A DNA stretch of 64,000 nucleotides from Ignavibacteria bacterium (GCA_025612375.1 JAAXKN010000001.1:40669-104668), one strand, 5' to 3'; positions 24,561 through 44,606 are shown, counted from the first letter of the stretch. Translations and numbers: made by a program. Notes: generated by a model from the letters alone, not told the origin.

Positions 24561-24650
24561 GGAGAGATGGGTGAGTGGCTGAAACCAACGGTTTGCTAAA
24601 CCGTCGTAGGGGGTAAACCTCTACCCCGGGTTCGAATCCCGGTCTCTCCG
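24561..24650 (+). tRNA. tRNA-Ser (anticodon GCT)
   Basis: Hand-folded. Acceptor GGAGAGA/TCTCTCC with G73. Anticodon stem ACGGT/ACCGT with loop TTGCTAA. Long variable arm GTAGGGG..CCTCTAC. T arm CCGGG-TTCGAAT-CCCGG. Confidence 0.92.
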
Positions 24651-24663
24651 CATAATGATAAAA

Positions 24664-24695
24664 GGCTCAAAATGGTGTGATTTTGAGCCTTTTTC
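24664..24695 (+). terminator. intrinsic terminator after tRNA-Ser
   Basis: Stem ggctcaaaa 24664-24672 / ttttgagcc 24681-24689, then a T-run. Confidence 0.7.
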
Positions 24696-24833
24696 GTATC
24701 TTCCCTGCTCTGAAAACTACCCAAAACTACTATGTACTACTCACGATATGCCACTTTTTTGCCAAATCTTTGCCAAATCAGTTAACGATAAAATCTTTTT
24801 CTTGGCTTAATGCTTTTGAATGAGAAAAGACTT

Positions 24834-24900
24834 TCATAGAAAGGTTGAGCCGAATTACTTATTGAATTCTCATAGAAATCTACTGTAATAGCTCATAGAA
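24834..24900 (+). promoter_or_regulatory. three direct TCATAGAAA repeats between attL and the integrase gene (candidate arm-type sites)
   Basis: Exact copies at 24834, 24870 and 24893. See the findings for the other copies. Confidence 0.5.
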
Positions 24901-24920
24901 AAGAATGAGGAAGCTGATTC

Positions 24921-26000
24921 TTAAAAATAAATTGAAGGTAATTTTTGAATCTCATAATGCATGTGGTCTGGCCTGTTGTGAGCATAAATTTCTGTTTCTG
25001 TGATGCTTGAATGTCCTAATAGTTCTTTAATTGATTCAATTGGAGCATTATTCTGGATCAAATGAGTTGCAAACGTATGACGGAATTTGTGCAAGAACGC
25101 TCTAGATTTTATTCCAGCATCCCTAGCAACTCTTTTACAAATTTCCAAAGCTCTCCTTTCCCTCATCTTACATCCATCCGAAGAGCAAAACGGATATATT
25201 TCAGAAATCTTATTCTCATTCAATGATTTTAATAAATTTAGTAATTCGTCATTTATTGGAATTGCTCTTTCAGAATTATAGGTTTTTGTCTTAAAACCAT
25301 CTTTGGGTCTGACATATATTAATCTTCTTTGGAAGTCAATATCATTCCAAGTCAAATTAGCTAACTCACCAAACCGCATCCCTGTCAAGAATAAGCATAG
25401 GAAAGCATTTTTATATGCTGGCGGCATTGACTGCGAAAAGAATCTTTTTAACTCTTCAAGAGTATAATACTCAGGTTTCTTTGCCTCATTCTTAAGATTT
25501 TTCAAATGCTGTACCGGGCTTTTTGGAATATGGTCTTTAGATACTTCATCTTTGAAAAATGCCTTAATCGTCTGAATATGGAAATTAACTGTTTTGGGTT
25601 GAGGTTTTATTATTTTATCCGTATTTCCTTTGGGATCTATTTTTTCCCTGATCAACTCTTGATAGAACAAAGTACCATGATCCGGTGTAAATTCATCTAA
25701 GAAAAGAATATTACACGCTTCAATGAAGTATTGAAACTGCTTAATGGCAAAACGATATTTCTTTACTGAAGTCGGCCTTAAGTTTTGTTTAGAAATCTCA
25801 AAATCACTTAATGCTTTCTCAAATGAATATCTTGCTTTTCGAAGGCTTAACCCTGCTAGTTTTTTTTCGTATTTTATTTTTGTTACTTTTGCTTTTAATG
25901 CTTCTGCATCAGCTCTCTTTTCAAAAGTTCGGCGAATTCTCTTCCCGAATTCATCCGTAATATAGAGGTAATATTTTCCATCAGTTCTCTTTTTAATCAA
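24921..26000 (-). CDS. tyrosine-type site-specific integrase
   Basis: 359 aa with TGMRFGELANL (Arg), HKFRHTFATHL (HxxR) and LGHSSITETEIYAH (His..Tyr). TTG start with an AAGGAG RBS, 2 nt after the upstream HTH gene. Confidence 0.9.
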   Translation of the reverse strand: MIKKRTDGKYYLYITDEFGKRIRRTFEKRADAEALKAKVTKIKYEKKLAGLSLRKARYSFEKALSDFEISKQNLRPTSVKKYRFAIKQFQYFIEACNILFLDEFTPDHGTLFYQELIREKIDPKGNTDKIIKPQPKTVNFHIQTIKAFFKDEVSKDHIPKSPVQHLKNLKNEAKKPEYYTLEELKRFFSQSMPPAYKNAFLCLFLTGMRFGELANLTWNDIDFQRRLIYVRPKDGFKTKTYNSERAIPINDELLNLLKSLNENKISEIYPFCSSDGCKMRERRALEICKRVARDAGIKSRAFLHKFRHTFATHLIQNNAPIESIKELLGHSSITETEIYAHNRPDHMHYEIQKLPSIYF

Positions 26001-26002
26001 TT

Positions 26003-26368
26003 TTATACTCCTTTTGTGATGATTCTGGCTAATTCTAAAATGGAGATCATTTTCTTATCGCCATAGTTGATTGATGATATTTTGTTATGTCGAACTTGCC
26101 GCCTGACAAATTCATAACTCAAGTTCAATATTTCCGCACAGTCTTTAATTGTAAAATTAAATTTTCCATTATGCTCTTTTAACAATAAAGATAAAGCTGA
26201 ATCCGTATTGGTCTTTTGATCAATTGGAGTGTCAGAATATTGTTGCATTTTGCTTTGAACTGGTTCCCTGTTCATTACTCCCTTCGGAGTTGAAAGGTTC
26301 TTAAAATCAATGATCTGTCCCATTTTGCATCCCATAAAAATGTTATTCCTACTTACATATACCGACAT
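26003..26368 (-). CDS. excisionase/MerR-like HTH DNA-binding protein
   Basis: The C-terminal FTIKDCAEILNLSYEFVRRQVRHNKISSINYGDKKMISILEL matches the HTH_17 (excisionase) pattern. The start is uncertain, with internal ATGs at 26335 and 26323. Confidence 0.6.
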   Translation of the reverse strand: MSVYVSRNNIFMGCKMGQIIDFKNLSTPKGVMNREPVQSKMQQYSDTPIDQKTNTDSALSLLLKEHNGKFNFTIKDCAEILNLSYEFVRRQVRHNKISSINYGDKKMISILELARIITKGV

Positions 26369-26472
26369 GAATTCCGATTTGGATACTATTTTTTGAAGAT
26401 TTTAAATATTTTTATGAGAAGCTAAAAAGGGCTTTTTTCTATGTTATGTAAAAAGGATTATAGAACTCAGAA

Positions 26473-27402
26473 CTAATTCATAGCAATATTTTCAAAACAG
26501 CTGAATACTTTATCCTTCTTATTCCTTAGGTCCAGCAAATCATCATATATAATTAGAGTATCCACTGACCTGTGCCTAGTAAACTTTCTTACTGTATTCA
26601 CATCCCCAAGCTGTTCTAAAAGTGCGGTACAATAATGATGCCTAAAACCATGAATTGTCCTGTCAATATCAAGTTCCCTAAAAAGACTTTTGACTTCCCT
26701 AAAAAGAGATGTGTGGCTAAGCTGTCCAGTACCTTTCCTATTGCTGAAGCTCGTAAACAGAAAGCCATTTTTAATATTTGCAAATTCAATATACTTGCCG
26801 ATTGCTTTCGCTGTGGCAGGATGAATAAATATATTTTCTTTATCTTGATACCCCTTGCCTTGAATCTGGATAACTCCTTGTCTTAAATCTATATCTTCGA
26901 TTGTTAATCTTAGAATTTCTATTTGACGTAAGCCTTGAAATATAAGCAACGCAAGCAATGCCTTTAGTCTATAGGTTTTCTTTGTAGCTGGCAAATCATT
27001 GAGCTTTCCAGTAATTCTTCGAATCTCTTCTTCTGTAAGGCCAAACTTCTTATGTTTTTTTAAATCTTTGAAACCTTTTACATTGGCAGTGTAGTCGATA
27101 GGAATTTTTCCTAACCTTGATAACTCTCTTAGAAATATTTTGCCCACTACAAAGAATTTATTCTTTGTGGATACTTTTAAATCAATTCTCTTTTCGAGCT
27201 CTCGTTTATAATCCAGCAGAGAATTCCTATGAAGTCCCTGACTTGAAATAAATTTAATAAAGCTTTCAATTCTATAAGAATAATCTTTCCGAGACGTACT
27301 TGAAATATCAATTGAACCAAATACATAGTTAGCTATTTGCTTCAGCTCAGGTATCTGTTCTCTTTGAATTATCTTATTATCGACTGGAAGTTGAGTATTC
27401 AT
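26473..27402 (-). CDS. second tyrosine recombinase (XerC/D-like)
   Basis: FQGLRQIEILRL (Arg), HGFRHHYCTALL (HxxR) and TRHRSVDTLIIYDD (His..Tyr). The ATG at 27402 follows a GAGGAA RBS. Confidence 0.85.
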   Translation of the reverse strand: MNTQLPVDNKIIQREQIPELKQIANYVFGSIDISSTSRKDYSYRIESFIKFISSQGLHRNSLLDYKRELEKRIDLKVSTKNKFFVVGKIFLRELSRLGKIPIDYTANVKGFKDLKKHKKFGLTEEEIRRITGKLNDLPATKKTYRLKALLALLIFQGLRQIEILRLTIEDIDLRQGVIQIQGKGYQDKENIFIHPATAKAIGKYIEFANIKNGFLFTSFSNRKGTGQLSHTSLFREVKSLFRELDIDRTIHGFRHHYCTALLEQLGDVNTVRKFTRHRSVDTLIIYDDLLDLRNKKDKVFSCFENIAMN

Positions 27403-27428
27403 TTTATTCCTCAATAATTATTTTTGTT

Positions 27429-28091
27429 TTATTCAGTTAAAAGAAATTTATCATAAATATCATTTTTCGTAATACTGACAGAAATATCTTCCTCCCAAAG
27501 ATCAATGAAGTGACCGAAATATTTTTTATCAAATAGATTAGGGAACCAAAAAATGCATGACATGCAATCTTCGCTGTCATAAAATTTTGCGACGTCCGAG
27601 TTTACATTTAGATAATTAATAAACTCCAGATATTCATTTCGACTTGCCTTAGAATATTTAGTCGTTCTGAAATTACATTGGAATATGAGGCCAGCTGAAT
27701 ACTCACCAAGAAGGAAAGAACTTTTCTCTGGGTGTGTAATAAGAAATATCCCGGCCTTACTTTTGATGGAATAGCCCAAGAAACGCAGATATTCTATGAA
27801 AGGATCAATTCTGCCGCTTTCATTTTTGCCTTCCTTTCTGATTTTCCGCTTCTTATTAATTTCATTTTCAATGAAAGAGCCGAACATGAAGCCAACTCGG
27901 AACACATCAATTATCTTTTTGAACTTCAAAAAGAATATACTCGAATCGCTCGTTTGGAAGTCATCACTTACTGAATAGTCGATGTCGGGATATTTCTCTG
28001 GAAGGAGATTGTAAATGAAATTAACGAACAAATCTCTTTCTTTGACTTTGTTCTTATTATTTAGTTTAAGCTGAAATTCTAGATCTGTCAT
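27429..28091 (-). CDS. hypothetical protein, 220 aa
   Basis: ATG-initiated ORF ending 26 nt upstream of the second recombinase start, so probably co-transcribed. No motif recognised. Confidence 0.5.
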   Translation of the reverse strand: MTDLEFQLKLNNKNKVKERDLFVNFIYNLLPEKYPDIDYSVSDDFQTSDSSIFFLKFKKIIDVFRVGFMFGSFIENEINKKRKIRKEGKNESGRIDPFIEYLRFLGYSIKSKAGIFLITHPEKSSFLLGEYSAGLIFQCNFRTTKYSKASRNEYLEFINYLNVNSDVAKFYDSEDCMSCIFWFPNLFDKKYFGHFIDLWEEDISVSITKNDIYDKFLLTE

Positions 28092-28390
28092 ATTTGCTCC
28101 TTTATTTGGTTTCTATGACTATAATAAATAATTATTTCATAGAATCCCCGGAGCAACATTTTTTTTAAGAATTTCGAACGATTTGTGAAAATATTTTTTT
28201 AGCGATAAATTATTTCGATTACTTTGAAGACTGTTATTTGGAATTGCATAAATTATTCTCTTATATCGTATATTATTGATATACTGGTTAAATAACCACC
28301 CATCTTCTTATTTTAACCACATTTATCTTAAATTATAGTTGATTTTTATTGGTATTAATAATTAAATGAACCCATATTAGAAAATGTGCT

Positions 28391-29479
28391 TTACTTTAAT
28401 ATTTTGCCTCTTATCAGCATAAAATCCTTTAATCCCATTTTTAATTCATCCCGATATATTCTTCTATAAGTTTTCAAATACTTTGCCCTTTTATAACTGG
28501 GATTTGAATTAGTTATCCTTAAAAGATTATTAATAGTCCCCATATTTTGTCTATAGATATTTAGCACCTTTTCTCGTCTTTCTTCTTTATTTCTTTCATT
28601 AACCGTTTTAATTTCGTCCGTTTCCTCATACAGGTTCTCGAAGTTTCTTAATCTCATAAATTCTCTCAATTGCTTTGATATTGGATTTGCGTCGGAGTTG
28701 AGAACATCTTTAAGAGTAATCACTGATTTCTGAATATTAAGATACTTACGAATATGCTTGAATTTATTTAAACTGATCTCTATTCTTAGAATATTTTTGA
28801 ATTGTTCTTTATGCTTTTTGGAAAGAAAGCTATATTTATTTTCCTCTGACATAATCTCATTGTATTTATCATAGAACAGAATTCTTCTCCTATTATTCTT
28901 TTTCGTTCTTGTACAAAGTGTCAGGCCAGATAATTTATTGCTTTCTTTTCCCGGATATGCATGAATTTTATTTCTATGATTGGCAATAGCCAGTCTATAT
29001 AGGCTTTTAATATATTTGTGAATCTCAGCATTCATTCTCAAATTGCAAGTAACATGACAAGAAATCACTTGGGCTTCTTCAAGGAAATCCTCTTGACTTA
29101 TTCTTATTATGCCTGTCTTGTTTATCTTTTCTATGACTTTATGGAAATTATTTTTATTTATCATTTCCATGTAATCTTCCCCAAGAATCTTTGATGATAT
29201 TTTCATAGTCACATTATTTTTCAATTTATTTTTCGGTTCATTTCCTTGTAATCCTTTTTTATATACTATTTTCATATAATTTAGCCCCGGATAAGGATTT
29301 GAAGAATTCTCCCCGTAATATTCTTCCCATTCTTCTATTTCCCCCAGTTTATTTCTTGTTTTCCTTTTTTTGAAAACTGAGCTATTATAGTCTTCAATTA
29401 AGAGTGAATTGTATTTTAGCTTGAGCATATCACACCTTAGAAATTTTCTTTGCATAATTAGATTCCTGATTTTTTCCAA
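28391..29479 (-). CDS. putative rolling-circle-type replication initiator (Rep_trans / gene II-like)
   Basis: 362 aa. ILFYDKYNEI ... ILRIEISLNK resembles the YDK and RxElxl motifs of Rep_trans/Phage_CRI families. The N-terminal DMLKLKY resembles their IDxLKL start. An alternative ATG lies at 29455. Confidence 0.4.
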   Translation of the reverse strand: MEKIRNLIMQRKFLRCDMLKLKYNSLLIEDYNSSVFKKRKTRNKLGEIEEWEEYYGENSSNPYPGLNYMKIVYKKGLQGNEPKNKLKNNVTMKISSKILGEDYMEMINKNNFHKVIEKINKTGIIRISQEDFLEEAQVISCHVTCNLRMNAEIHKYIKSLYRLAIANHRNKIHAYPGKESNKLSGLTLCTRTKKNNRRRILFYDKYNEIMSEENKYSFLSKKHKEQFKNILRIEISLNKFKHIRKYLNIQKSVITLKDVLNSDANPISKQLREFMRLRNFENLYEETDEIKTVNERNKEERREKVLNIYRQNMGTINNLLRITNSNPSYKRAKYLKTYRRIYRDELKMGLKDFMLIRGKILK

Positions 29480-29860
29480 AAAGTTACATTGTTAAGGTAA
29501 TAGTGAGTTTTAACTTCATAGAAGTCATAGAATATATCATATTTCTACTTCCTAATAGTAAATACCGACTTAAATCTGGAAATGGATTCTTCTTAAATAT
29601 ATTTTTTTATAGAATGATTTATTACTTGAGATAGGATTTGGGATATTGCCTTTATTCGGCATTTTAGCATAGATTGGGTGGGAAAGTTGGCTTGACTGAA
29701 GAAAGTGTCTTGAAGAGGCTCCAATGAAGAAATATGGAGCCTCTATGTGTTACACTGAAAGGAACATTTAGTGAGTATTTCGACCATTATTTTATTGAAT
29801 CCATAGAACCTAAATTCCATTTTTCAGGATTCTTTCTATGATAGTTGTTTTCTATAGATT

Positions 29861-30571
29861 TTATCCTTCGACACCTTCAGCATGAATTTCATAATCATCT
29901 AACATGCTTATAAAAATATCTGTATCTCTTCTGAATATTGCTCTATAGATTTCATTTGTTACAAATCGGAAGTTTATTTTTTCTATTTTATCTTTAGTTA
30001 AGGTGTAGGTTGCTATGATTAATTTTTTCTTTCCCATATCATTTCCATAATTATCAGTTGTCGACCTGAATATCACGAAATACATTTTGATTTTCTGAAC
30101 TTGAGGAAATACATAATACAATTTTTCAGCGGACAAAAAGAATGTGGGCATAGTTTGAAATAAAGTTGCCGTTTCTGGTGAATTATAGAAAAGAATACCA
30201 TTGCCCAAAGTTCTCATATCATTTAACACCATAGTAACATGCAAAATACCGGATTCATCTATCAAGCCGCCATAAACTTTCGAGTCATTTGCATCTTTAC
30301 CAAGTAAGCGAATTACTTTTTTTGCTTCTTTAGTAATATCTTTTTTCAATGTTGTTTCGGCTGAGACTTTAGATTTGTTTGATAAATTCAATGATGTGTC
30401 TGATTGTCCGCTTGAACCTCCTATCTGTATTTCCGCTTTTTTGTGGGGCCATAAAAGAGTTATTATTTGCCAGATAAAAAAGAGCATTATAACAATTAAA
30501 ACAAGGTTATATACTTTAGAAAGATTTTTAAGGCGAGGAATAAAGCCAAGGAACTTTTTAAATACTCCCAT
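29861..30571 (-). CDS. N-terminally membrane-anchored protein, function unknown
   Basis: 236 aa with an AAGGAG RBS and a single TM helix (VYNLVLIVIMLFFIWQIITLLW) followed by a soluble domain. Confidence 0.55.
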   Translation of the reverse strand: MGVFKKFLGFIPRLKNLSKVYNLVLIVIMLFFIWQIITLLWPHKKAEIQIGGSSGQSDTSLNLSNKSKVSAETTLKKDITKEAKKVIRLLGKDANDSKVYGGLIDESGILHVTMVLNDMRTLGNGILFYNSPETATLFQTMPTFFLSAEKLYYVFPQVQKIKMYFVIFRSTTDNYGNDMGKKKLIIATYTLTKDKIEKINFRFVTNEIYRAIFRRDTDIFISMLDDYEIHAEGVEG

Positions 30572-30660
30572 TGTAAATTCTCCTTAAATATTTTGTTCGA
30601 TTTCTGAATAAGCTATATGATTTTATTTGAGCATGTTTTTAATTCATTTAACTTTATTTA

Positions 30661-30888
30661 TTATCCAAAAATTAGGAACACAAATATTAATAGAAATAAT
30701 ATTGCTATTGAACCAAGTACAAAAGTACAACCGATATTAAGGGTCTGTAGAAAACAACCTTCTTTGGCAACAACTTTAATTTTTTCAGTGCTTGGTCTGC
30801 CATCTAAATATTCTCCTCAGTGCTTACATTTTATGGCATTTACATTAATTTCTTCAGCGCAAATCGGACAGGTTTTATAAGGTTCCAA
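30661..30888 (-). pseudogene. zinc-ribbon plus C-terminal TM small protein interrupted by an in-frame TGA (30817-30819)
   Basis: A GGAGGAG RBS is followed by a TTG at 30888. The protein reads MEPYKTCPICAEEINVNAIKCKH-TGA-GEYLDGRPS..FVLGSIAILFLLIFVFLIFG-TAA. The TGA sits where the fourth Cys of the CxxC..CxxC ribbon is expected. Confidence 0.55.
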
Positions 30889-30976
30889 TTATTTCTCCTC
30901 CGCTGAAAAGTATTTTTTATATTTCTTATAAGAGGTCTTATTTCTCTTCAGTTAGAAACAATATGAATTTTAATCT

Positions 30977-31585
30977 CTAAACTTCTCTATTACAATATCT
31001 ACAAATTCTTGCCTTTGCTTTTATTGTCTCTGCGCAATACGGACATATTTTTGTATCCTCTCTATCATCAAGATTAGCCTCATTCATTGGATTAGCAAAT
31101 GCAAAAGCTTGTTTATGATAGTCAGCCACTTTCTTACTTTCCATTGCATCTACAATTGAATCCCTCACCGCTATAGGATTTACCACATCATAATAAATTG
31201 TACTTCCTTTTTTTGCCGCTGTCTGAATTTCAATATCTCCAAAATTGAATATTTTTCCTATAAATGGTTGTCTGTAAGTAATATTATTGATTTTTTCCAA
31301 CGGGCTTTCTTTTGAATAAAAAGAAAACACACCATATTCTTCTATTACTCTCTGGTTTGTAACAACCCACATATAATATTTCCAAGAATAGAATTTATAG
31401 ATTCCGTAAATAATTGTTCCCGAACATAGAATTATATAAAACAAACCACCATTGCTTTTTCCAAATAATAAAGAGATAGAGATTATAAGTATAATGGAAG
31501 CTATTATAAAAGGAAGGATTAATACTTTCCAATGCTTTTGGGTTGTAAATATTATTTCCTCATTTTCTTTTAATTCAGTTCTCAT
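30977..31585 (-). CDS. membrane bPH_2 (DUF304/YdbT-like) domain protein with C-terminal zinc ribbon
   Basis: ATG at 31585. Two TM helices are followed by a PH-like domain (YRQPFIGKIFNFGDIEIQTA) and a C-terminal CPYCAETIKAKARICRYC. Confidence 0.6.
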   Translation of the reverse strand: MRTELKENEEIIFTTQKHWKVLILPFIIASIILIISISLLFGKSNGGLFYIILCSGTIIYGIYKFYSWKYYMWVVTNQRVIEEYGVFSFYSKESPLEKINNITYRQPFIGKIFNFGDIEIQTAAKKGSTIYYDVVNPIAVRDSIVDAMESKKVADYHKQAFAFANPMNEANLDDREDTKICPYCAETIKAKARICRYCNREV

Positions 31586-33102: not shown

Positions 33103-33120
33103 GAATCCCGGTCTCTCCGC
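33103..33120 (+). repeat. direct repeat of the tRNA-Ser 3' end (attR of island 1)
   Basis: 18/18 identity to 24634-24651. Confidence 0.85.
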
Positions 33121-33134
33121 CATCAAACAATTTA

Positions 33135-33166
33135 AGCCTGAAGTCAGAAGATTTCAGGCTTTTTTG
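33135..33166 (+). terminator. intrinsic terminator following att copy 1
   Basis: Stem agcctgaagtc / gatttcaggct, then a T6 run. Confidence 0.65.
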
Positions 33167-33221
33167 TGCCTGCAAATTAAAGTAATGAAGAGCAAATCTC
33201 TTATGGAATTCCGATTTGGGA

Positions 33222-33566
33222 CTAAATATCTGTAATCACCCATTTTATGCCGGATTCAATTTTAGACATAATATCTTCCGGCATGTCTCCGATTTTATTA
33301 CTTATCCGTTCTTCCTTATCAATAGCCCTGATCTGCCCACAATGAACAATACTATCCTTAGTCAAGCCACCCTGATCTTTAGGAACAAAAACATGCATCT
33401 TACTGGTCTTGCCAAATGCATCGGTAATGGGACAGATAACAACTACAGCCGCGTTCTTATTAACAATATCGTTAGATACAACTACCGCCGGACGGAATTT
33501 TTGCATTTCTCTGCCCCTGACCGGCTCCAAATCTACGTAGTATATTTCACCTCTTTTAATTTCCAT
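33222..33566 (-). CDS. mazF: MazF/PemK-family toxin endoribonuclease
   Basis: MEIKRGEIYYVDLEPVRGREMQKFRPAVVVS..VVICPITD..CGQIRAIDK. The ATG overlaps the antitoxin stop (TAATG). Confidence 0.8.
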   Translation of the reverse strand: MEIKRGEIYYVDLEPVRGREMQKFRPAVVVSNDIVNKNAAVVVICPITDAFGKTSKMHVFVPKDQGGLTKDSIVHCGQIRAIDKEERISNKIGDMPEDIMSKIESGIKWVITDI

Positions 33567-33817
33567 TATATCTTCGCCTCGGCAGATTTCCAATCCTTAG
33601 CCATCTGCTTGTCATTTTCATAATAAAACTTACAAGCTTCAATGACTTCCTGCTCTGTTTTCTTTTCCTCCATTTTTTTCATGTATTCATCCAGAGCTGC
33701 ACGAACCATCTGGCTGAGATTGATATTTAACTCCCTGGCCATTGACTCAGCTTTTTCAATCATATCAGCCGGCAAAAGAAAGTTCTTTCTTAAATTTCCA
33801 GTTGCTGCATTTTTCAT
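33566..33817 (-). CDS. ribbon-helix-helix-type antitoxin
   Basis: 83 aa. The RKNFLLPADMIEKAESMARELNINLSQMVRAAL pattern matches CopG/RHH. It sits upstream of mazF and overlaps it. Confidence 0.65.
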   Translation of the reverse strand: MKNAATGNLRKNFLLPADMIEKAESMARELNINLSQMVRAALDEYMKKMEEKKTEQEVIEACKFYYENDKQMAKDWKSAEAKI

Positions 33818-34033
33818 AATTCACTTCCTATTCTCGATTCAATTATAACAGAGCTAACCGTATTTTCTCAGAGACCCCATGATATACAATTAAGTACATA
33901 TGGAATATATGTATAATACATACACCCATAAAGTACACCCGAATGTATACAAAGTCAAGAGAGAAATCAGGTGATAATAGGAACTTCCTTTTCCCAAGGG
34001 AAACGCATTTGAGGAAGAGTTAAAGATTTTTAC

Positions 34034-34067
34034 AAAATTTTCCGAAAACGCTTCTCGTCACCATATA
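34034..34067 (+). promoter_or_regulatory. 34-nt conserved upstream element, copy 1
   Basis: aaaattttccgaaaacgcttctcgtcaccatata matches 39080-39113 at 32/34 positions. It lies 47 nt upstream of the ATG at 34114. Confidence 0.45.
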
Positions 34068-34113
34068 TATATATGTATAAGGAAATAGCTTTTTGCCAAC
34101 TTCTGAGGAATTC

Positions 34114-34476
34114 ATGAAAAAGGGCATCTGTTCAATTCTTCTTTTTACCATTATGCTTACACTGACATCCTGCTATTCAGAACGTTTTGTTAATTCTCAG
34201 AATAATCTTAATGAAGTTAAGGACAGCGACATTATTGTCTCTGTTGAGACAAATGACGGCAGGTTAATAATGAATGAGCGTCCAAACGCAGTATATAAAT
34301 CCGATAAGGGTCTTTATGTCGTGGATACAACGGGTACAAAGGTTCTCCCTTATAAGGATGTGAAATCAGTTAAAATAAAGGAAGTAAGTTACTTTAAGAC
34401 AGCTTCTCTGGTAGCAGGAGCGAGTCTGATTGGAAATATTGTTTTATTCGTTACCAGCTTTCATGGATTTCAATAA
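34114..34476 (+). CDS. lipoprotein, function unknown
   Basis: MKKGICSILLFTIMLTLTSC lipobox plus a C-terminal hydrophobic helix. The ORF-track start at 34093 is a TTG. Confidence 0.5.
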   Translation: MKKGICSILLFTIMLTLTSCYSERFVNSQNNLNEVKDSDIIVSVETNDGRLIMNERPNAVYKSDKGLYVVDTTGTKVLPYKDVKSVKIKEVSYFKTASLVAGASLIGNIVLFVTSFHGFQ

Positions 34477-34677
34477 TTCACATGAGAAATAAATTAAATT
34501 ATCCATCTGTCCCGGATTTAAGTTCTAAAACCCTTTACTTTGCAAGAAGGATGTTTCTGGTTTATACGAAATTTGGTTAAATTCACATGGGCGTAGTTTT
34601 GGATATAGGTAACATTTGCCCGCAGGCACTGCGTTCACAATATCTGCAATAGTCTTTACTTTTTAGGAATACATTTG

Positions 34678-36429
34678 ATGAAAAGGCTCTACTTCATAAT
34701 TTTTATACTTGGAATTACATCAACTATATTTTCCCAGAACTTTAATCCGGTTAAATGCAGGGCTTTAAATCGTGACTGGAAAACCATTATCGACACAACA
34801 TGGGGAGAGGGAAATCCAACTGCGGTTAAACTGGCAGTGTTTGATTCCGTTTGGAACACAATAGACCGCCAGTATGCCTGCTTTCAGAACCTTGATATTG
34901 ACTGGAAAGCGCTAAAAGATAAGTACAGACCTGAAATAGAAAGTGGAGTAAGCAGGGGCAGATTTGCGGCTATCATGAATTATCTTGGATTAAGTCTTCA
35001 GGAAACACACACAAATTTTTCAGATCCGGGAGTAAATTATAGATATGTATTAGATGCTCCTCCTGGAGCCCCCATCCTTTATACAGGCTTTTGGGGACGA
35101 GATTCCCGTTTCGGGGCCGGACTCACACCCCTTGCTGACAGTTCACTGCTGGTATATCAGGCTGTTGAGAATCATCCGCTTGGCTTGATACCAGGAGATA
35201 TTGTTCTGGGCTATGACGGCGTACCCTGGAAAATACTTTATAAGGAACTGCATAAGCTTGAAATACCCATTAATATGTCAAGCCAATGGGGATCAAACAA
35301 TGAGGCATTCACGCACCTATGGCTTTCAGGAGCAGGACAGAACTGGCACTTGTTCGATACAATTGATATAAAGAAATTCAGAACAGGCGAAATTGTCCAC
35401 ATCCCTACAAATCTTTTGGTAAATAAGAAATTCAATATTACTTATTCCGAACAGTTGCCTGTTCCCGGAGTACCATGGATAGATAAAAGCAATAATTGGT
35501 CTGTTGCCTGGGGCATGGTGGAAGGGACAAAAGTAGGATATATCTACGTTTGGAATTGGTTTAGTGGAATTTCAGTGAAATTTCATAACGCACTGGATTC
35601 GCTGATAAATGTCAATAAGGCTGAAGGTCTTATTCTGGACTTCAGAGCAAATTATGGCGGGTATGTAAGGGAAAGTGACTGGGGACTAAGCCTTCTTTTT
35701 AAGAATTCTGCTCCTACTTTATCTTTAGTTACCAGAAGTAACCCGTATGATCATTTTCAAATGAAGAATACATCTAATTACATTTTTTCAGATGATTCAA
35801 CTGCTTATTTTGATAAGCCGATTGCCGTACTGACTGGACCAATGTCAATAAGCGCTTCTGATTTTATTGTAAAAAGACTGCAGTACCATCCCAAAGTAAG
35901 GGTATTCGGGAAGTCCACATCTTCAGCATTTGCATCCGCCTCAAGAATTATGATTTCTAATATCGAATTGGATTTTGCCGAATATAACGGTATGGATATT
36001 AGTAATCCCGGGGAATATCTGACGCATAATAAACAGAAAGTGGATGATGATGTTTGGTTTACTCCGGAGGACGTAAACAAAGGAGAAGATTCAGTAGTTA
36101 AAGAAGCTTTGAAATGGATAAATGATAATGTACTTTCTATACATCCTGAAAACACATCTGTAGTAACAGAATTCAATCTTAAACAAAATTATCCAAATCC
36201 TTTCAACCCGGCAACAACCATAAGCTATTCAATCCCAAAAGGGGCATTTGTTGACCTGAAAGTATTTGACATGCTGGGACGTGAAGTATCAACACTTGTA
36301 AGTAAAGAACAAAGTGCAGGAGAGTATAAGGTTCAGTTTGACGCATCCTCCCTGCCCAGCGGAGTGTACATATACACTTTGCAGGCAGGCCAGTTCAAAG
36401 ATTCCAGGAAACTACTAATCCTTAAGTAA
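34678..36429 (+). CDS. peptidase S41-like (tail-specific protease family) with T9SS C-terminal domain
   Basis: LILDFRANYGGYV and GPMSISASDFIV match S41 motifs. The C-terminal NYPNPFNPATTISYSIP..SGVYIYTLQAG..LLILK matches the CTD pattern. Confidence 0.7.
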   Translation: MKRLYFIIFILGITSTIFSQNFNPVKCRALNRDWKTIIDTTWGEGNPTAVKLAVFDSVWNTIDRQYACFQNLDIDWKALKDKYRPEIESGVSRGRFAAIMNYLGLSLQETHTNFSDPGVNYRYVLDAPPGAPILYTGFWGRDSRFGAGLTPLADSSLLVYQAVENHPLGLIPGDIVLGYDGVPWKILYKELHKLEIPINMSSQWGSNNEAFTHLWLSGAGQNWHLFDTIDIKKFRTGEIVHIPTNLLVNKKFNITYSEQLPVPGVPWIDKSNNWSVAWGMVEGTKVGYIYVWNWFSGISVKFHNALDSLINVNKAEGLILDFRANYGGYVRESDWGLSLLFKNSAPTLSLVTRSNPYDHFQMKNTSNYIFSDDSTAYFDKPIAVLTGPMSISASDFIVKRLQYHPKVRVFGKSTSSAFASASRIMISNIELDFAEYNGMDISNPGEYLTHNKQKVDDDVWFTPEDVNKGEDSVVKEALKWINDNVLSIHPENTSVVTEFNLKQNYPNPFNPATTISYSIPKGAFVDLKVFDMLGREVSTLVSKEQSAGEYKVQFDASSLPSGVYIYTLQAGQFKDSRKLLILK

Positions 36430-36478
36430 TTTTGAGCTCATCTATTCAATACTGTATATTTTATGGCGAAAAGTTTTC

Positions 36479-36493
36479 TCCCGGTCTCTCCGC
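36479..36493 (+). repeat. tRNA-Ser 3'-end repeat, copy 2
   Basis: tcccggtctctccgc matches 24637-24651 at 15/15 positions. Confidence 0.75.
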
Positions 36494-36505
36494 AAAAAAG
36501 AAGAA

Positions 36506-36537
36506 AGCCCAAAACCCCACAGCTTTGGGCTTTTTTG
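36506..36537. terminator. bidirectional terminator between convergent CTD genes
   Basis: Stem agcccaaa / tttgggct, flanked by A- and T-runs. Confidence 0.65.
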
Positions 36538-36542
36538 TATCC

Positions 36543-37268
36543 TCACTTAAATAGCAGTAATTTCTTTGAATCGGTGAACTGTCCTGCCCTGATCGTGTAA
36601 ATGTATATTCCGCTGGGAAGATTGGATGCATCATAATGAACAGTATAAGTCCCTGCTTCTTTGTATCCGTTAACCAGTACAGCCGCCTCATTGCCAAGTA
36701 TGTCGTAAACCCTTAGACTTACAAACTGGCTCTTTGGTAATAAAAATGTAATGTTTGTACCTGGATTAAAAGGATTGGGATAATTCTGCTCTAAGGAATA
36801 CTTGTCAGGCCCCGGGTTTTTACCTGTTTCAACTCCGGATGTGCCCAATAGATTTAACGGCATGCTGAATACTCCCCCGCCTTCAGTTCCTGCAAAGAGG
36901 TCAGATTCGCTTGCTGCCAGAGATTTAACACTAGTATTTGTAAGGCCCGTATTGACCTTACTCCAGTTCGCCCCGTTATTTGCCGATTGGAATACCCCTC
37001 CGGGAGTCCCGGCAAAAAGATTAGAACCGCTAACTGCAATAGTGTAAATATCGTTATATGGTAATCCAGTGCTGCGCTGAGTCCAGCTTTCGCCATTGTC
37101 AGTTGACACGAATACTCCGCCATTTGTTCCGGCAAACATATTATTCCCGCTTACAGCCAGGGAATAAAAACTATAACCGCCGGACGGCCCGTTGGTATGT
37201 ATCCACTGTACCCGGATCTGAGCAACCAGACATAAAATAAATGTTAAACTTAAGAGCAGTCGTTTCAT
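36543..37268 (-). CDS. BNR/Asp-box repeat protein with T9SS C-terminal domain
   Basis: 241 aa with a signal peptide, STDNGESWTQ and SANNGANWSK Asp-boxes, and an NYPNPFNPGTNITF.. CTD. Confidence 0.65.
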   Translation of the reverse strand: MKRLLLSLTFILCLVAQIRVQWIHTNGPSGGYSFYSLAVSGNNMFAGTNGGVFVSTDNGESWTQRSTGLPYNDIYTIAVSGSNLFAGTPGGVFQSANNGANWSKVNTGLTNTSVKSLAASESDLFAGTEGGGVFSMPLNLLGTSGVETGKNPGPDKYSLEQNYPNPFNPGTNITFLLPKSQFVSLRVYDILGNEAAVLVNGYKEAGTYTVHYDASNLPSGIYIYTIRAGQFTDSKKLLLFK

Positions 37269-37643
37269 ATGGCTGTATACAGAAATTTATGATAATTAGT
37301 AAGTAAGTTTTTCCATTATATCAGGCACCGGATGCCTGATGCGTTAAAAATATTCCTGTATAGCCTCTAAACGATACAACATGCAATTAAACCGGCAGGT
37401 ATAATAACCAGGCATAAAGCTATTCTGTCAAGTGGATTTGACACATTTTACTTTTAAGAATGCTTGCAGTTAAGGCCTGTTCGGTTTTATTCTAAATAAA
37501 AACTTAAGTTAACAAGAACCTGTTCACACAGCCATCAAAGATAAAAGAAAACCGGGAAATAACATAGAAGCAATTTCTAAGCCTACGGTCTTAAAAAAGA
37601 TTAAGTAAATAACAGGAAATTATACCGCCCGGACACAAGGATT

Positions 37644-37659
37644 ATCCCGGTCCCGCCAC
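37644..37659 (+). repeat. degraded tRNA 3'-end-like repeat, copy 3
   Basis: atcccggtc matches exactly and is followed by ccgccac. The same A-run and hairpin context (cacggctttgggcttttc) follows. Confidence 0.45.
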
Positions 37660-37717
37660 AAAAAAAACACAAAATCACACGGCTTTGGGCTTTTCTGTGC
37701 CCTTTCGTTAATGCAAG

Positions 37718-37851
37718 CCCCCATTTCTCTGGCCTGCCATGAGATTAATTATCAAAGATTTGATATATTATCAAATTTCTGAATATTAATTTTATTCTAT
37801 CCGCCAAAATTTAATTTTTCAGGCTGTTTATTCCGGCCCGATCTTTGAACA
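37718..37851 (+). repeat. roughly 134-nt repeat R, copy 1 (paralog of 40588-40722)
   Basis: It shares cccccattt..gcctgccatgagatt.attatca..tgatatat.atcaaatttctga..ttattccggcccgatctttgaaca with copy 2. Identity is roughly four-fifths by eye. Confidence 0.75.
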
Positions 37852-37855
37852 ACGT

Positions 37856-38092
37856 CCATTTAACCCAACTACTTCAATCAGCTATTCCATTCCTGAACAG
37901 TTTCTGGTAGAATTAAAAGTTTATGATCTGTTAAGCCGTCAGATTTCAACTCTGATAAATAAAGAGCAGAGTGCAGGTGAGTATAAGTTTCAGTTTGACG
38001 GCTCTTCGCTGCTCACAGGGATGTATGTATATTCCATACAGGCCGGGGAGTTCAGAGTCTCAAAGATACCCATCCTGATTAAGCAGCTATAG
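37856..38092 (+). pseudogene. T9SS C-terminal-domain-only gene remnant (no start codon)
   Basis: It reads PFNPTTSISYSIPEQFLVELKVYDLLSRQISTLINKEQSAGEYKFQFDGSSLLTGMYVYSIQAGEFRVSKIPILIKQL-stop. The frame is open back to a TAA at 37787-37789 with no ATG, GTG or TTG. It is fused directly to repeat R. Confidence 0.7.
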
Positions 38093-38154
38093 GATAAGCT
38101 AAAATATAATTGATGGCGGGAGTTCTTTAGGATAATTAGATAGCATTAGAAGAA

Positions 38155-38184
38155 AAGGCCGGTCAATTACGACCGGCCTTTTTC
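38155..38184. terminator. bidirectional intrinsic terminator
   Basis: Stem aaggccggtc / gaccggcctt with flanking A- and T-runs. Confidence 0.7.
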
Positions 38185-38217
38185 ATTAAGGTCTTTTCCT
38201 GGCAGTTAATTACTCCC

Positions 38218-38826
38218 CTATTGCAAAGGGAAGTTTATGATTTTATTTTCTAACGGCAGAAAATATGCACTCTGTCCAGTTCCATAGTACAATTTATTTC
38301 GTATTTCCTGAATGCTTGTTTCGTTCTGAATATGCCCTGCCTGTACATACCAGGCCAGGACTACGTTAATAGGTCCATTTTGATTGGATAAAGGTAACTC
38401 TGAAAGCTTTTCTTTTGAAATCTTGAATTGATAATTTTTGCTTAATTTATCCTTAAGAAAAACTAAGCTGTCCAGGAAAAAGGTAGGAACAATTATCTCG
38501 GTATTTGATTTTATCTTAAGGGAATCTCCATAAAAGACAAATGTATGCATATATACCATCGCTGCATTGACTTCCATACTATCGCCCCCATATGTTACCT
38601 TAGGCCATCCGTATAGATTCCTGTCAAAGTCAAGCTTCAGCTGGAAAGTATAGAACTGTGTACTGTCTGCGCTGTCTTTCTGAATTTCCCATGTGCCTTT
38701 GTAAAAACGTTCGAAATTTTGAGGCGGTGTTTCTGAAGCAACTGAAGAAGATGTGGGATTTGAGGATTTTTGGCAGCCCAAAATCATTGAGCAAACAATA
38801 ACTATAAGAAACAATTTGTTTTGCAT
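38218..38826 (-). CDS. lipoprotein, function unknown
   Basis: The ATG at 38826 gives MQNKLFLIVIVCSMILGC, which contains a lipobox. Confidence 0.5.
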   Translation of the reverse strand: MQNKLFLIVIVCSMILGCQKSSNPTSSSVASETPPQNFERFYKGTWEIQKDSADSTQFYTFQLKLDFDRNLYGWPKVTYGGDSMEVNAAMVYMHTFVFYGDSLKIKSNTEIIVPTFFLDSLVFLKDKLSKNYQFKISKEKLSELPLSNQNGPINVVLAWYVQAGHIQNETSIQEIRNKLYYGTGQSAYFLPLENKIINFPLQ

Positions 38827-39079
38827 AGTGTGCACCAGGAATTTTATTTATAAAGGTGGATTAATGAGCAAGCAAAAACACAGATTCTTAAACTAAGAGC
38901 TCAAAGTATTATAAAACGAATAAATTTCTATTAAATAATAAGAAATGTTTGTTCAACAACCAACGTTCCAGGGAGGAAAAATGGATATGTTCTTTATTTT
39001 TCCCCTTTCCCGTCCTTGCAAATTTCTACATAATGTGGCCCATTCTGTAATAAATTCTTAATTTTCTATTTTGTTCAGG

Positions 39080-39113
39080 AAAATTTTCCGAAAACGCTCT
39101 TCGTCACCATATA
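39080..39113 (+). promoter_or_regulatory. 34-nt conserved upstream element, copy 2
   Basis: aaaattttccgaaaacgctcttcgtcaccatata ends in tataat and lies 59 nt upstream of the ATG at 39172. Confidence 0.45.
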
Positions 39114-39171
39114 ATACATATAGAAAAATTATTGGGAACTTACTGGTTTGGGAAAACATGGAGAAATATAT

Positions 39172-39741
39172 ATGAAACGTTTTCACACAGTTTTTCTTTT
39201 TCTGGTGCTTTTAAGCAGCATCCGGTTTGCACAAAACAGGAACGTCGCAGTTGTACTAAAAATGGGCCCATCCAGCTATGAGTTTGATGGTTTTAACGAA
39301 TCCAGCAGTTGGCGCAGTGCCCTGCAGACCTCGGCAGGGGTAGAATTCCCCATAAGCAGCAACTTCTCTCTACAAACCCAGCTATATTACTCACAGCACG
39401 AAGTAGAGGCCACTGGTATTTATATGAATCTTGTACAGAAGGATCCCAAAATCAGGCTTGTTGATTTTCTGTGCAGCCTAAAGTGGAATATCGGCTATTT
39501 TTACCTTATTGGAGGCTACGGCCTATCGCTCCAGAATACGGATGAAATGGGCGTTTACGTAAAAGGGGTCTATACGAAGCTGGATTCCAAAGATAATAAG
39601 ATTTTTAAGGCGTACCTCCTGGGCATGGGGGCGGACGTAAATGTCTGGGAAAATCTGAATTTAATTGCTGAAGCCAATCTGCATATAAGAGATGAATATG
39701 GCGGTAATCTGCTTATGGGAGTTAAATATTTTATTTACTGA
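39172..39741 (+). CDS. small outer-membrane beta-barrel protein
   Basis: Signal peptide MKRFHTVFLFLVLLSSIRFAQ, alternating beta-strand pattern, C-terminal ..GVKYFIY. Confidence 0.5.
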   Translation: MKRFHTVFLFLVLLSSIRFAQNRNVAVVLKMGPSSYEFDGFNESSSWRSALQTSAGVEFPISSNFSLQTQLYYSQHEVEATGIYMNLVQKDPKIRLVDFLCSLKWNIGYFYLIGGYGLSLQNTDEMGVYVKGVYTKLDSKDNKIFKAYLLGMGADVNVWENLNLIAEANLHIRDEYGGNLLMGVKYFIY

Positions 39742-39856
39742 TAAATCATGTGGATCTATTCTGGTAGCAAAATACTCAGAACATTTTCAGGACACCGGCA
39801 TAGAGAAAAAGCATAAATCAGCCTAAGTTAAATATGTTTTGTGGCGGGGAACTTTC

Positions 39857-39871
39857 TCCCGGTCTCTCCGC
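39857..39871 (+). repeat. tRNA-Ser 3'-end repeat, copy 4
   Basis: tcccggtctctccgc at 15/15, followed by an A-run and a hairpin terminator at 39882-39914. Confidence 0.75.
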
Positions 39872-44604: not shown

Positions 44605-44606
44605 GG

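Follow-up and report, generated by a model that had tools for sequence, protein, structure and literature searches.

How did several copies of the end of a tRNA gene come to lie one behind the other downstream of the only tRNA gene within a 64,000-nucleotide stretch of an Ignavibacteria bacterium genome (GCA_025612375.1; hereafter the window)? The gene is identified as tRNA-Ser(GCU) by ARAGORN (24561-24651, plus strand), in agreement with Rfam (tRNA, 58 bits) and a pattern search, and constitutes the anchor (attB/attL) of the locus. Its terminal 15-mer, TCCCGGTCTCTCCGC, occurs exactly at 24637, 33106, 36479 and 39857, always on the plus strand, while 0.02 matches with up to two mismatches are expected by chance and four matches were reached in none of 100 shuffles. 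An earlier note on this DNA had claimed that an 18-mer at the tRNA 3' end, GAATCCCGGTCTCTCCGC (24634-24651), recurs at 33103-33120 (copy 2), and that the inner 15-mer recurs at 36479 and 39857 (copies 3 and 5) together with a common upstream flank; all of these repeats are exact, and the flanks of copies 3 and 5 are 84% identical over 45 nt. The degraded copy placed by the same note at 37644-37659 (copy 4) is real as well, although the first of these positions is one base too many: the copy, TCCCGGTCCCGCCAC, occupies 37645-37659 on the plus strand and shows three mismatches to the core. An intact tRNA stands at one end, and repeats of its 3' end in identical orientation bound the successive segments, as in a tandem array. 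We consider it likely that 24561-42185 arose by repeated site-specific integration at the 3' end of tRNA-Ser(GCU), mostly of non-autonomous cassettes. As judged from sequence, the tRNA is followed by one apparently still-mobile element of 8.5 kb and by small cassettes without integrase, at least three and probably four in number, most of which still end with a copy of the terminal 15 bases of the tRNA.

The tRNA-proximal segment, designated E1, is an integrative element of 8469 bp (24652-33120); the 18-bp direct repeat delimits it, and a related contig lacks it. In the latter (L004, GCA_050259655.1) the intact tRNA directly abuts the flank of copy 2, and this empty site identifies segment 1 as a mobile element. 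With an assembly k of at least 21, this junction could not have arisen from an 18-nt overlap. L004 is, however, a mosaic whose 1.3 kb upstream of the tRNA derive from the sister species; a similar patch is carried by L016. In one JGI sample, two contigs have 55 nt in common at the tRNA, one of them stopping exactly at the tRNA 3' end, and this contig break (24651) appears to resemble a branch in an assembly graph.

The GC content amounts to 31% in E1, to 38-41% in the cassettes and to 44% in the host. E1 encodes two tyrosine recombinases on the minus strand. Int1 (24921-26000, 359 aa; Pfam PF00589, E 6e-34; PHROG integrase), whose gene lies 270 nt from the tRNA, puts a recombinase beside the att site; its scores fall below all NCBIfam cut-offs including that of the integron integrase. 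Int2 (26473-27414, 313 aa; PF00589, E 4.7e-21) is conserved in L033/L034, an E1-like relative of identical gene order. Between the two, in the position of an excisionase, lies the gene of a small HTH protein (26003-26368, minus strand; Pfam HTH_17, E 0.0013, below the cut-off), a location conserved in L033 which weakly suggests an Xis-like protein. Homologues of Int1 adjoin tRNA-Ser genes in all four cases in which the tRNA side lies inside the fetched DNA (L035, L038/L039, L040), and in other Ignavibacteria tRNA-Ser(TGA) and tRNA-Ser(CGA) are found next to integrases of the E1 family. The cargo and backbone genes (27429-32630, minus strand) were searched against Pfam, PHROGs, NCBIfam and PADLOC. 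They comprise a bPH_2 membrane protein (30977-31597, minus strand) and a MUG113/T5orf172 protein (31869-32630, minus strand), both recognised by domain searches, as well as proteins of 220, 362 and 236 aa which match no family in these four collections; collections of phages and plasmids contain nothing that matches this region. E1 shows no recognisable genes for conjugation or mobilization (mob/oriT). We rejected its classification as a prophage or phage satellite since structural, packaging and phage-interference genes are absent, PHROGs returning only an integrase, a DNA-binding protein and unknowns; a single weak integrase match is present in IMG/VR. The right arm together with core copy 2 (33019-33120, plus strand; core at 33103-33120), located by pattern and repeat search, represents the attR of E1.

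The four remaining segments span 1.2 to 3.4 kb and harbour one to four genes each, in mixed orientation and with their own promoters and terminators, which encode mostly T9SS-secreted or envelope proteins in addition to toxin-antitoxin-like pairs. Cassette 2 (33121-36493; 3373 bp, 38% GC), characterised by Pfam and folding, contains a predicted hairpin (33134-33161), a MazF toxin (33222-33566, minus strand) and an RHH/CcdA-like antitoxin (33566-33817, minus strand), a lipoprotein (34093-34476, plus strand) and an S41 peptidase with a T9SS sorting tail (34678-36429, plus strand), toxin, antitoxin and peptidase being assigned by Pfam; it ends with a residual arm (36454-36478) and the exact core copy 3 (36479-36493, plus strand). 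Over its initial ~70 nt it agrees at 96% with the beginning of a different cassette of L019, a contig of the sister species. Only the S41 gene has a counterpart, 91% identical, in the tRNA-Ser(GGA) array of the sister species; it changed arrays on its own, without the rest of the cassette. Cassette 3 (36494-37659, 1166 bp) comprises a bidirectional hairpin (36504-36533, from folding), a BNR/T9SS protein (36543-37268, minus strand) and, as its last part, the degenerate copy 4 of the core. Cassette 4 (37660-39871, 2212 bp), with a decayed hairpin at its start, includes at 37717-38085 the remnant of a paralogue of the cassette A BNR gene (40587-42146), an ORF for a lipoprotein-like protein of 205 aa (38218-38835, minus strand), an OMP beta-barrel (39148-39741, plus strand), a full-length arm (39766-39856), which a profile derived exclusively from other arrays detects at E 2.7e-7, and the exact core copy 5 (39857-39871, plus strand). 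Cassette A (39872-42185), delimited by homology to L019 and provided with a weak hairpin, encodes DUF4160 (40055-40312), DUF2442 (40316-40576) and a BNR/T9SS protein (40794-42146), all on the plus strand and assigned by Pfam. On its right-hand side the window has no arm-core junction, and no core copy follows 42146. The array is likely bounded distally by 42186-42302 (plus strand), whose homologue lies just beyond the arrays of relatives (L019 7429-7545; L028) and in L028 forms the start of a gene annotated as DUF6174.

Comparison with relatives reveals breaks exactly at the repeats for E1, for the block 24652-39871 and for the whole array. In L019 the tRNA abuts the flank of copy 5 so that cassette A is tRNA-adjacent; L019:369-2651 and 39857-42151 of the window are 87.6% identical over 2.3 kb, starting exactly at the core. 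The direct connection of the tRNA to this flank in a sister species indicates that 24652-39871 is inserted DNA. The L019 array consists of its own cassettes; its last core copy is partial, and beyond it lies the flank which abuts the tRNA in the cassette-free relative L031/L016. L028 carries a DinB cassette of 1165 bp and a methyltransferase cassette. The two empty sites in L004 and L019, with the tRNA next to a distal flank, bear out the proposal of the earlier note that islands are stacked in tandem at this att site. The segments of the window are not conserved in order, as the relatives possess differing cassette sets or none. No individual empty site for segment 2, 3 or 4 was found among the relatives compared; these segments could have arrived as one composite, while their junctions suggest separate insertions.

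The junctions follow a common layout consisting of an arm of ~105 nt, the 15-nt core and a hairpin, which recurs in the arrays behind tRNA-Ser(GGA) and tRNA-Ser(CGA). When a profile was trained on the arms of these two arrays alone, with the core left out, the arms of the GCU array scored E 3e-8 to 1e-6; L033, an integrase-bearing relative of E1, was matched in its right arm (E 6e-4). The arm of E1 itself, searched with a profile trained without E1, yields E 0.0075 with the core and 0.21 for the arm alone, which renders its link to the cassette arms marginal. Two ATGACA-like repeats 11 nt apart within the arm point to a putative arm-binding region for the integrase. A terminator of its own had been attributed to each core copy. 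This holds for copies 1 to 3, namely the hairpin with T-run supplied by E1, which now terminates the tRNA gene (24661-24697, plus strand; -20.8 kcal/mol, z -8.0), and the strong hairpins of copy 2 (-19.9 kcal/mol, z -4.8) and copy 3 (-16.2 kcal/mol, z -3.6), but the hairpin is decayed at copy 4 (z -0.9) and weak or imperfect at copy 5 (z -0.6). Compensatory changes have preserved the hairpin: among 20 junctions, nine of its 11 pairs vary at both positions. Copy 5 and the L019 tRNA are followed by different terminators despite homologous flanks beyond, which indicates that ordinary recombination also reshapes junctions.

Where, then, are the integrases of the distal segments? Cassettes 2 to 4 are bounded by cores at both ends and contain no recombinase. 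Pfam and tblastn locate recombinases in E1 only, as the earlier note had stated, and not every unit owns an integrase. That note had regarded the distal segments as decayed remnants which kept their cargo. Accordingly, each might once have been a complete integrase-bearing island whose recombination module was later deleted, leaving cargo and att repeat behind. Some decay is indeed visible: junctions 3 and 4 exhibit a truncated arm, a core with three mismatches and a broken hairpin, cassette 4 includes the gene remnant at 37717-38085, and the right-hand junction of cassette A is lost. However, a tblastn search of the distal 31 kb and of the arrays of relatives detects no fragment of either recombinase or of another E1 gene (best E at least 0.1). 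While this lack of remnants by itself neither proves nor excludes an origin by deletion, ~16 integrase-less cassettes are present in five arrays of four species, an integrase being carried by one of ~17 segments. In most of these cassettes the arm-core-hairpin junction is clean, and core and hairpin adjoin directly; in the window, only junctions 3 and 4 look decayed. A deletion origin would thus demand many independent deletions with nearly identical end points, and we consider it unlikely, though the strongest of the alternatives. Instead of decayed islands, the four recombinase-free segments most likely represent non-autonomous cassettes akin to cis-mobilizable elements, belonging to a family of integrase-less cassettes and presumably moved by integrases of the E1 type.

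Far less probable is an origin without serial integration, in which a single tRNA-end remnant with its terminator was locally duplicated or converted along with neighbouring T9SS genes. The units following copies 4 and 5 are paralogous past the core (82% between 37717-37851 and 40587-40722), their sorting-tail regions match at ~74%, and two L019 junctions have ~450 nt in common, including the 3' end of a sorting-tail coding region. In contrast, the cargo between junctions is unrelated between cassettes and between species, the cross-species homology of cassette A sets in exactly at the core, and E1 has demonstrably been inserted at this site. Furthermore, in the sister species (L037) tRNA-Ser(GGA) and tRNA-Ser(CGA) are each followed by an array with exact copies of their own 15-mer, which duplication of one remnant could not produce. 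That the 15-mer is just a common intergenic or terminator-associated repeat matching the tRNA by coincidence may virtually be dismissed: every copy is intergenic and beside a terminator-like hairpin, but no terminator-linked copy exists in the window's remaining ~49 kb (up to four mismatches, both strands), the 15-21 kb loci of relatives show copies only downstream of the matching tRNA-Ser and in the same orientation, and in a scan of a genome collection the 19-mer TTTCTCCCGGTCTCTCCGC occurs within the lineage only at the orthologous array. A dispersed genome-wide repeat of the REP type was rejected as well since the copies are tied to the tRNA.

If the array indeed arose by serial integration, an incoming circle would bring an attachment module in which the ~105-nt arm is followed by 15-18 nt of tRNA 3'-end sequence, an A-rich spacer and finally a hairpin with T-run. 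Recombination at the core would restore an intact tRNA ending in the core and terminator of the newcomer, while the previous tRNA end and its trailing DNA would be displaced downstream, behind the arm of the newcomer. E1, with two tyrosine recombinases and the Xis-like protein, would be the tRNA-proximal, autonomous and polymorphic occupant, and tRNA-Ser-specific integrases of its family may integrate and excise the distal cassettes in trans. More tentatively, and with somewhat more doubt than confidence, we suggest that Ignavibacteriales possess a dedicated tRNA-Ser-anchored system of cassette capture, integron-like in function, in which non-autonomous cassettes with a common module of ~170 bp (arm, 15-nt core fitted to one of several tRNA-Ser isoacceptors, terminator hairpin) are captured, stacked, shuffled between GCU, GGA and CGA sites and excised by a specialised family of tyrosine integrases carried on small E1-like elements. 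If so, the arrays would be exchangeable stores of T9SS-secreted and envelope proteins together with toxin-antitoxin pairs.

Tandem arrays of integrative elements at tRNA and tmRNA genes have been described in general, the Islander/TIGER criterion being an integrase of its own in each unit (PMC7192596). The ssrA islands of Dehalococcoides are tandem elements at the tmRNA gene with 20-bp 3'-end repeats in the same orientation; about half of the segments carry an integrase, the serine recombinase DsiB, and the many islands without integration module were proposed to be cis-mobilizable (PMC3146451). Both loci consist of an RNA gene followed by several 3'-end repeats in the same orientation, with tandem strain-specific sets, an integration module beside attL and a conserved motif just upstream of every repeat. 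Here, in contrast, the recombinases are of the tyrosine type, the integrase-less segments are much smaller (1.2-3.4 kb), only one of ~17 carries an integrase, the conserved arm extends over ~105 nt, and one module family serves three tRNA-Ser isoacceptor genes, its core matched to each.

CIMEs and their accretion-mobilization have reportedly been described for ICESt1/ICESt3 of Streptococcus thermophilus (reviewed in PMC5704250; cited in PMC3146451); they are thought to be deletion derivatives of ICEs. The cassettes resemble them in that they are att-bounded, encode neither recombination nor transfer functions and stand in tandem with an element which has an integrase and might excise them, singly or along with itself, but they show no trace of a deletion origin, and E1 has no detectable conjugation or mobilization genes. 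With integron arrays they have in common the small size, mostly one to four genes, the absence of recombinases, the terminal conserved module containing a hairpin and, presumably, a tyrosine recombinase serving in trans. Yet the anchor is a tRNA gene instead of attI, and the integrase rides on a mobile element. An IntI-type integrase was rejected (TIGR02249, 79.8 and 50.0 bits for the two recombinases versus a cut-off of 265), as were attC sites, the junctions comprising arm, 15-nt tRNA core and a GC-rich intrinsic-terminator hairpin with T-run without R''/L''-L'/R' boxes, and co-oriented cassettes behind a Pc promoter, the genes lying on both strands. The pdif modules of Acinetobacter plasmids and IMEX at dif, which depend on host XerC/XerD and 28-bp dif-like sites, are likewise small recombinase-less modules in series, often with toxin-antitoxin genes, bounded by copies of a short tyrosine recombinase site; the long arm beside the tRNA 3' end that serves as the site here, however, suggests an arm-binding integrase of the lambda type. 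NBU1 and NBU2, mobilizable elements of Bacteroides, integrate at the 3' ends of tRNA-Leu and tRNA-Ser. Compared by description, they correspond to E1 as small tyrosine-integrase elements of the FCB group whose short core is identical to the tRNA 3' end and which rebuild the tRNA, whereas E1 has two recombinases and no recognised mob/oriT genes; to our knowledge, integrase-less cassette arrays are no described feature of NBUs. While tandem arrays, integrase-less islands and this type of insertion hotspot are already known, the distinctive feature of the present locus is a hotspot made almost wholly of non-autonomous cassettes with one common attachment module.

The last 15 nt of the tRNA-Ser(GCU) gene at 24561-24651 (plus strand), which is, in agreement with Rfam, the sole tRNA gene of the window, form the core of a repeat (TCCCGGTCTCTCCGC) found exactly at 24637, 33106, 36479 and 39857, throughout on the plus strand, and as a degraded copy with three mismatches (TCCCGGTCCCGCCAC) at 37645-37659. 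With up to two mismatches permitted, the expected number of matches to this 15-mer is 0.02, and four were not reached in any shuffle. An 18-mer (GAATCCCGGTCTCTCCGC) is common to the tRNA end and 33103-33120. An earlier note, made from the sequence alone, had described this repetition and attributed it to islands stacked in tandem at one attachment site. Our pattern search confirms the four exact copies and the degraded one, and the core is not scattered over the window, as in its other ~49 kb no further terminator-linked copy is present on either strand at up to four mismatches. The claim that each copy possesses its own terminator holds for copies 1, 2 and 3, which are followed by strong hairpins (z = -8.0, -4.8 and -3.6, respectively), and is weakened for copy 4, whose hairpin is decayed, and copy 5, whose hairpin is weak. 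The upstream flank said to be shared by copies 3 and 5 is borne out, with 84% identity over 45 nt. At a permissive threshold Rfam returns the tRNA only, the junction matching no known RNA family.

The tRNA-proximal segment, E1 (24652-33120, 8469 bp), has a GC content of 31% (host: 44%) and all of its genes lie on the reverse strand. Closest to the tRNA, at a distance of 270 nt, is the gene of a 359-residue tyrosine integrase; the others encode a small Xis-like HTH protein at the position of an excisionase, a second tyrosine recombinase of 313 residues and, as cargo, a membrane protein of the bPH_2 type, a MUG113/T5orf172 protein and three proteins that match no family. The E1 proteins of 220, 362 and 236 residues have no counterpart in NCBIfam or PHROGs, and no match was obtained for E1 DNA in a phage collection, for the 362-residue protein among plasmids, or for any protein of E1 or the cassettes among the defence systems of PADLOC. 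Int1, one of the two E1 recombinases, shows a single weak, partial match in IMG/VR. Contigs from two different JGI samples are interrupted at nearly identical positions within the gene of the 362-residue protein (~29131-29138), which hints at a variant or a repeat there in the population.

Further away from the tRNA, segment 2 (33121-36493, 3373 bp, GC 38%) carries a MazF/RHH pair, a lipoprotein and an S41 peptidase with a T9SS tail, segment 3 (36494-37659, 1166 bp, GC 41%) a single BNR/T9SS gene on the reverse strand, and segment 4 (37660-39871, 2212 bp, GC 38%) a BNR gene remnant, a 205-residue ORF and an OMP beta-barrel. Cassette A, beyond copy 5 (39872 to ~42185, ~2.3 kb, GC 39%), comprises a DUF4160/DUF2442 pair and a 450-residue BNR/T9SS protein. 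That recombinases are confined to the tRNA-proximal segment, as the earlier note had stated, agrees with the gene calls and with tblastn using all eight E1 proteins, which yielded no fragment of any of them downstream of 33120 (best E at least 0.1). The BNR/T9SS gene remnant of segment 4 (37717-38085, a 97-residue ORF in the annotation of one MAG) is paralogous to 40587-42146, to which its promoter region is 82% and its sorting tail 74% identical, about 1.2 kb in between being deleted. A palindromic operator-like motif (TATCAGAAATTTGATAT...ATCAAATTTCTGA), which may be a common regulatory site, is located just past the junction hairpins and upstream of a BNR/T9SS gene at 37747-37793 and 40618-40663, and upstream of a DUF6174 gene in two related loci (L019, ~7372-7474; L028, ~2390 in tRNA orientation). 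Another motif of ~40 nt (AAAATTTTCCGAAAACGCT.TTCGTCACCATATA, 90% identical) precedes the lipoprotein and OMP genes of two different cassettes (34034-34074 and 39080-39121) and recurs in the sister species within a different array (locus L037, 310-388). Toxin-antitoxin-like pairs occupy the tRNA-proximal end of several cassettes, right behind the junction hairpin (MazF/RHH at 33222-33817, DUF4160/DUF2442 at 40055-40576, a 109-residue ORF with a HEPN protein at 6467-7217 of L037), and may be addiction modules stabilising the cassettes. Past cassette A follows a replication module of ~3.1 kb (42303-45421) with neither integrase nor tRNA-core repeat, which consists of a DnaB-like helicase (42311-43675, minus strand), a RepO-like initiator (43696-44604, minus strand) and a small ORF. 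It is missing in L028, where its flanks (window 42302 and 45428) are ~460 nt apart, and seems to have taken the place of the greater part of a gene whose homologue in that locus is annotated as DUF6174.

The organisms named as sources of the closest Ham1 homologues suggest that the window stems from an Ignavibacteria/Ignavibacteriales MAG lineage. A precise empty site of E1, of the kind the earlier note had proposed to look for, is present in L004, a locus of a related genome (GCA_050259655.1, JBLNBB010000015.1). Here, an intact tRNA gene is joined directly to the copy-2 flank (...GAATCCCGGTCTCTCCGC|CATCTAACAATTTAAGCCTGAAG...) and followed by 20.5 kb which are 99.98% identical to window 33103-53675. 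This contig is mosaic, the 1.3 kb upstream of the tRNA being those of the sister species. An assembly artefact via the terminator shared with that species is nevertheless rejected since the spacer is of the copy-2 type (CATCTAACAATTTAA) and not of the sister species' type; moreover, an overlap of 18 nt is insufficient for an assembler working with k of at least 21. One JGI contig terminates precisely with the 3' end of the tRNA, and a second one from the same sample starts 55 nt earlier and continues into E1, which is consistent with E1 being polymorphic. The lineage switch at the tRNA is seen in two public contigs, L004 (20556-21365) and L016 (4428-5700), the latter being 99% window-like over 1.3 kb upstream of the tRNA and 75-82% further upstream, with no window homology downstream; it reflects either chimerism of metagenome assembly at a conserved tRNA or real recombination at a hotspot. 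In a metagenome collection the direct tRNA|AAAAAA junction was found only at unrelated tRNA-Ser genes of other organisms, and the 19-mer junction gave nothing in IMG/VR.

Scanning a genome collection with the 19-mer TTTCTCCCGGTCTCTCCGC led to the orthologous locus of the sister species, L019 (JBLMYS010000126.1), which is labelled Acidobacteriota. This is at odds with L025, which is 99.8% identical to it over their overlap and carries the label Ignavibacteriales. In L019, CMD-tRNA-Ser is immediately followed by a homologue of window 39857-42151 (87.6% identity) which starts at the core; hence, the block 24652-39871 is absent, with break points at cores. The locus has cassettes of its own, encoding a 906-residue T9SS protein and, next, a 286-residue protein, which are bounded by cores at 2798 and 5952. 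Farther on, at 7294, a partial core precedes the terminator and flank which are situated directly behind the tRNA in the cassette-free loci L031 and L016. In L028 (JBLNAZ010000199.1) the tRNA is followed by a 1165-bp DinB cassette, a core, a methyltransferase cassette, a degenerate core and the L019-type distal flank, and a further locus, L029, displays a different arrangement again, including an IS66 element. The segments are thus not conserved in relatives, and this variable content supports, together with the empty-site configurations of L004 and L019, the proposed tandem stacking of islands at the tRNA-Ser gene.

Comparable arrays exist behind other tRNA-Ser genes. The closest homologue of the segment-2 S41 peptidase (92% identity at the amino acid and 91% at the nucleotide level, limited to the gene) resides in such an array of the sister species (L037, JBLMYS010000239.1). 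In this locus tRNA-Ser(CGA) and tRNA-Ser(GGA) genes stand back to back (5222-5309 and 6249-6336) with one cassette array each. The 3' 15-mer of the GGA gene (TCCCACTCTTTCCGC) is repeated exactly downstream at 9024, 12836 and 16904, and that of the divergent CGA gene (TCTCCCCCTTTCCGC) possesses three exact downstream copies, each with a nearly identical terminator. Two GGA-type junctions are also found in L029 (1546 and 6357), where the GGA-type array and the tRNA-Ser(GCU) locus converge, the IS66 element lying between them. The gene calls of the L037 and L029 cassettes (1.4-4.8 kb) contain no recombinase; their cargo includes, among others, a HEPN-containing pair, ChrB/MFS and a P-type ATPase.

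Alignment of 16 junctions reveals a conserved arm of ~105 nt left of the core (consensus ...ATTCAKGACAYTTTTAKGACATCGGCTTT...CAGCCTGAATTC...ATTTKG....) and an A-rich spacer plus hairpin to its right. An arm profile trained on the GGA and CGA arms alone, with the core excluded, finds the copy-5 arm of the window (39766-39847, E 2.7e-7), the arms of L019 and L028 (E 3e-8 to 1e-6) and the right arm of L033 (E 6e-4), an integrase-bearing relative of E1 with 71% identity of the integrase, the same gene order and the attR core GAATCCCTGTCTCTCCGC. The arm of E1 itself scores marginally (E 0.21), and those of window junctions 3 and 4 are truncated or degenerate. More than 120 IMG/VR matches to an arm 15-mer all proved to be due to chance after screening with the profile. 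The reading of the arm as the degenerate 5' part of a tRNA was rejected, as a T-arm-like stem is discernible by eye in only one CGA-array junction. Compensatory substitutions maintain the hairpin, 9 of its 11 pairs being altered on both sides across 20 junctions. A short motif (CTTCCCTG / TCTCCCT) behind the hairpin, which may be a piece of the left attachment arm, is found at the tRNA-proximal end of E1 (24700-24716), of other integrase-bearing elements and of CGA-array cassettes (junction flanks of L035, L040 and L037).

Ignavibacteria contain numerous homologues of Int1. All four whose tRNA side is contained in the fetched DNA adjoin tRNA-Ser(TGA) or tRNA-Ser(CGA), and behind each of these tRNA genes is a hairpin supplied by the element; the integrase contexts L035 and L038-L040 confirm the targeting of tRNA-Ser, the fetched DNA ending short of the far (attR) ends. 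According to the best-supported explanation, arm-binding tyrosine integrases carry out successive site-specific integrations into tRNA-Ser genes, their target being the section that begins with the T-stem and extends as far as the 3' end. Arm, core and hairpin would constitute the incoming attP, the arm being the putative integrase-binding region. Crossover within the core would rebuild the tRNA with the core and terminator of the newcomer and leave, on the far side, the newcomer's arm next to the old core and old flank. E1 would be the present autonomous, polymorphic occupant. The earlier note had regarded the distal segments as decayed remnants; given the absence of recombinase fragments in tblastn we replace this by non-autonomous cassettes with a common att module. 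Segments 2-4 would have arrived separately, and the cassettes, including A, are presumably mobilised in trans or carried along by a neighbour. Integration does not always take place beside the tRNA since cassette A, the most distal one in the window, lies beside the tRNA in the sister species, where cassettes distal to it exist. Ordinary recombination reshapes the array as well, as indicated by swapped hairpin types, by the lost right junction of cassette A, by the paralogous BNR remnant (37717-38085) and by the S41 gene, which moved as a single gene, its homology stopping exactly where the residual arm starts (36454/36455).

That elements accrete in tandem at tRNA genes is textbook knowledge; the usual unit is an autonomous island, and units lacking an integrase are regarded as debris. 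Here, such units are the rule and are small with intact genes, and a conserved attachment module recurs behind three tRNA-Ser genes in several species with different cargo each time. If the cassettes were moved in trans, this would represent a second, integron-independent route to exchangeable cassette arrays based on tyrosine recombinases, in a poorly studied phylum and with cargo enriched in T9SS-secreted surface proteins. Arm, tRNA core and hairpin provide a concrete signature by which such arrays can be searched, and island finders that demand an integrase for every island will overlook them or divide them wrongly. An integron is rejected (79.8 bits with the integron-integrase model at a cut-off of 265); unlike integrons, the arrays have no attC architecture and their gene orientations are mixed. 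Full-text searches yielded no account of arrays like these, either from Ignavibacteria or as tRNA-anchored cassette arrays in general. Integrative elements arranged in tandem arrays are a well-documented phenomenon (PMC7192596). Among the known cases the ssrA islands of Dehalococcoides come closest. They, too, are arranged in tandem and have 20-bp repeats corresponding to the 3' end of ssrA, each preceded by a conserved motif; 15 of the islands lack an integration module and were proposed to be cis-mobilizable (PMC3146451). The tRNA-Ser arrays differ from these in using tyrosine instead of serine recombinases, in their much smaller units, of which ~16/17 are without integrase, in the long conserved arm and in one module family extending over three tRNA-Ser isoacceptors. 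Tandem stacking as such is known, and the tRNA-Ser cassette arrays with their common att module are a variant of it.
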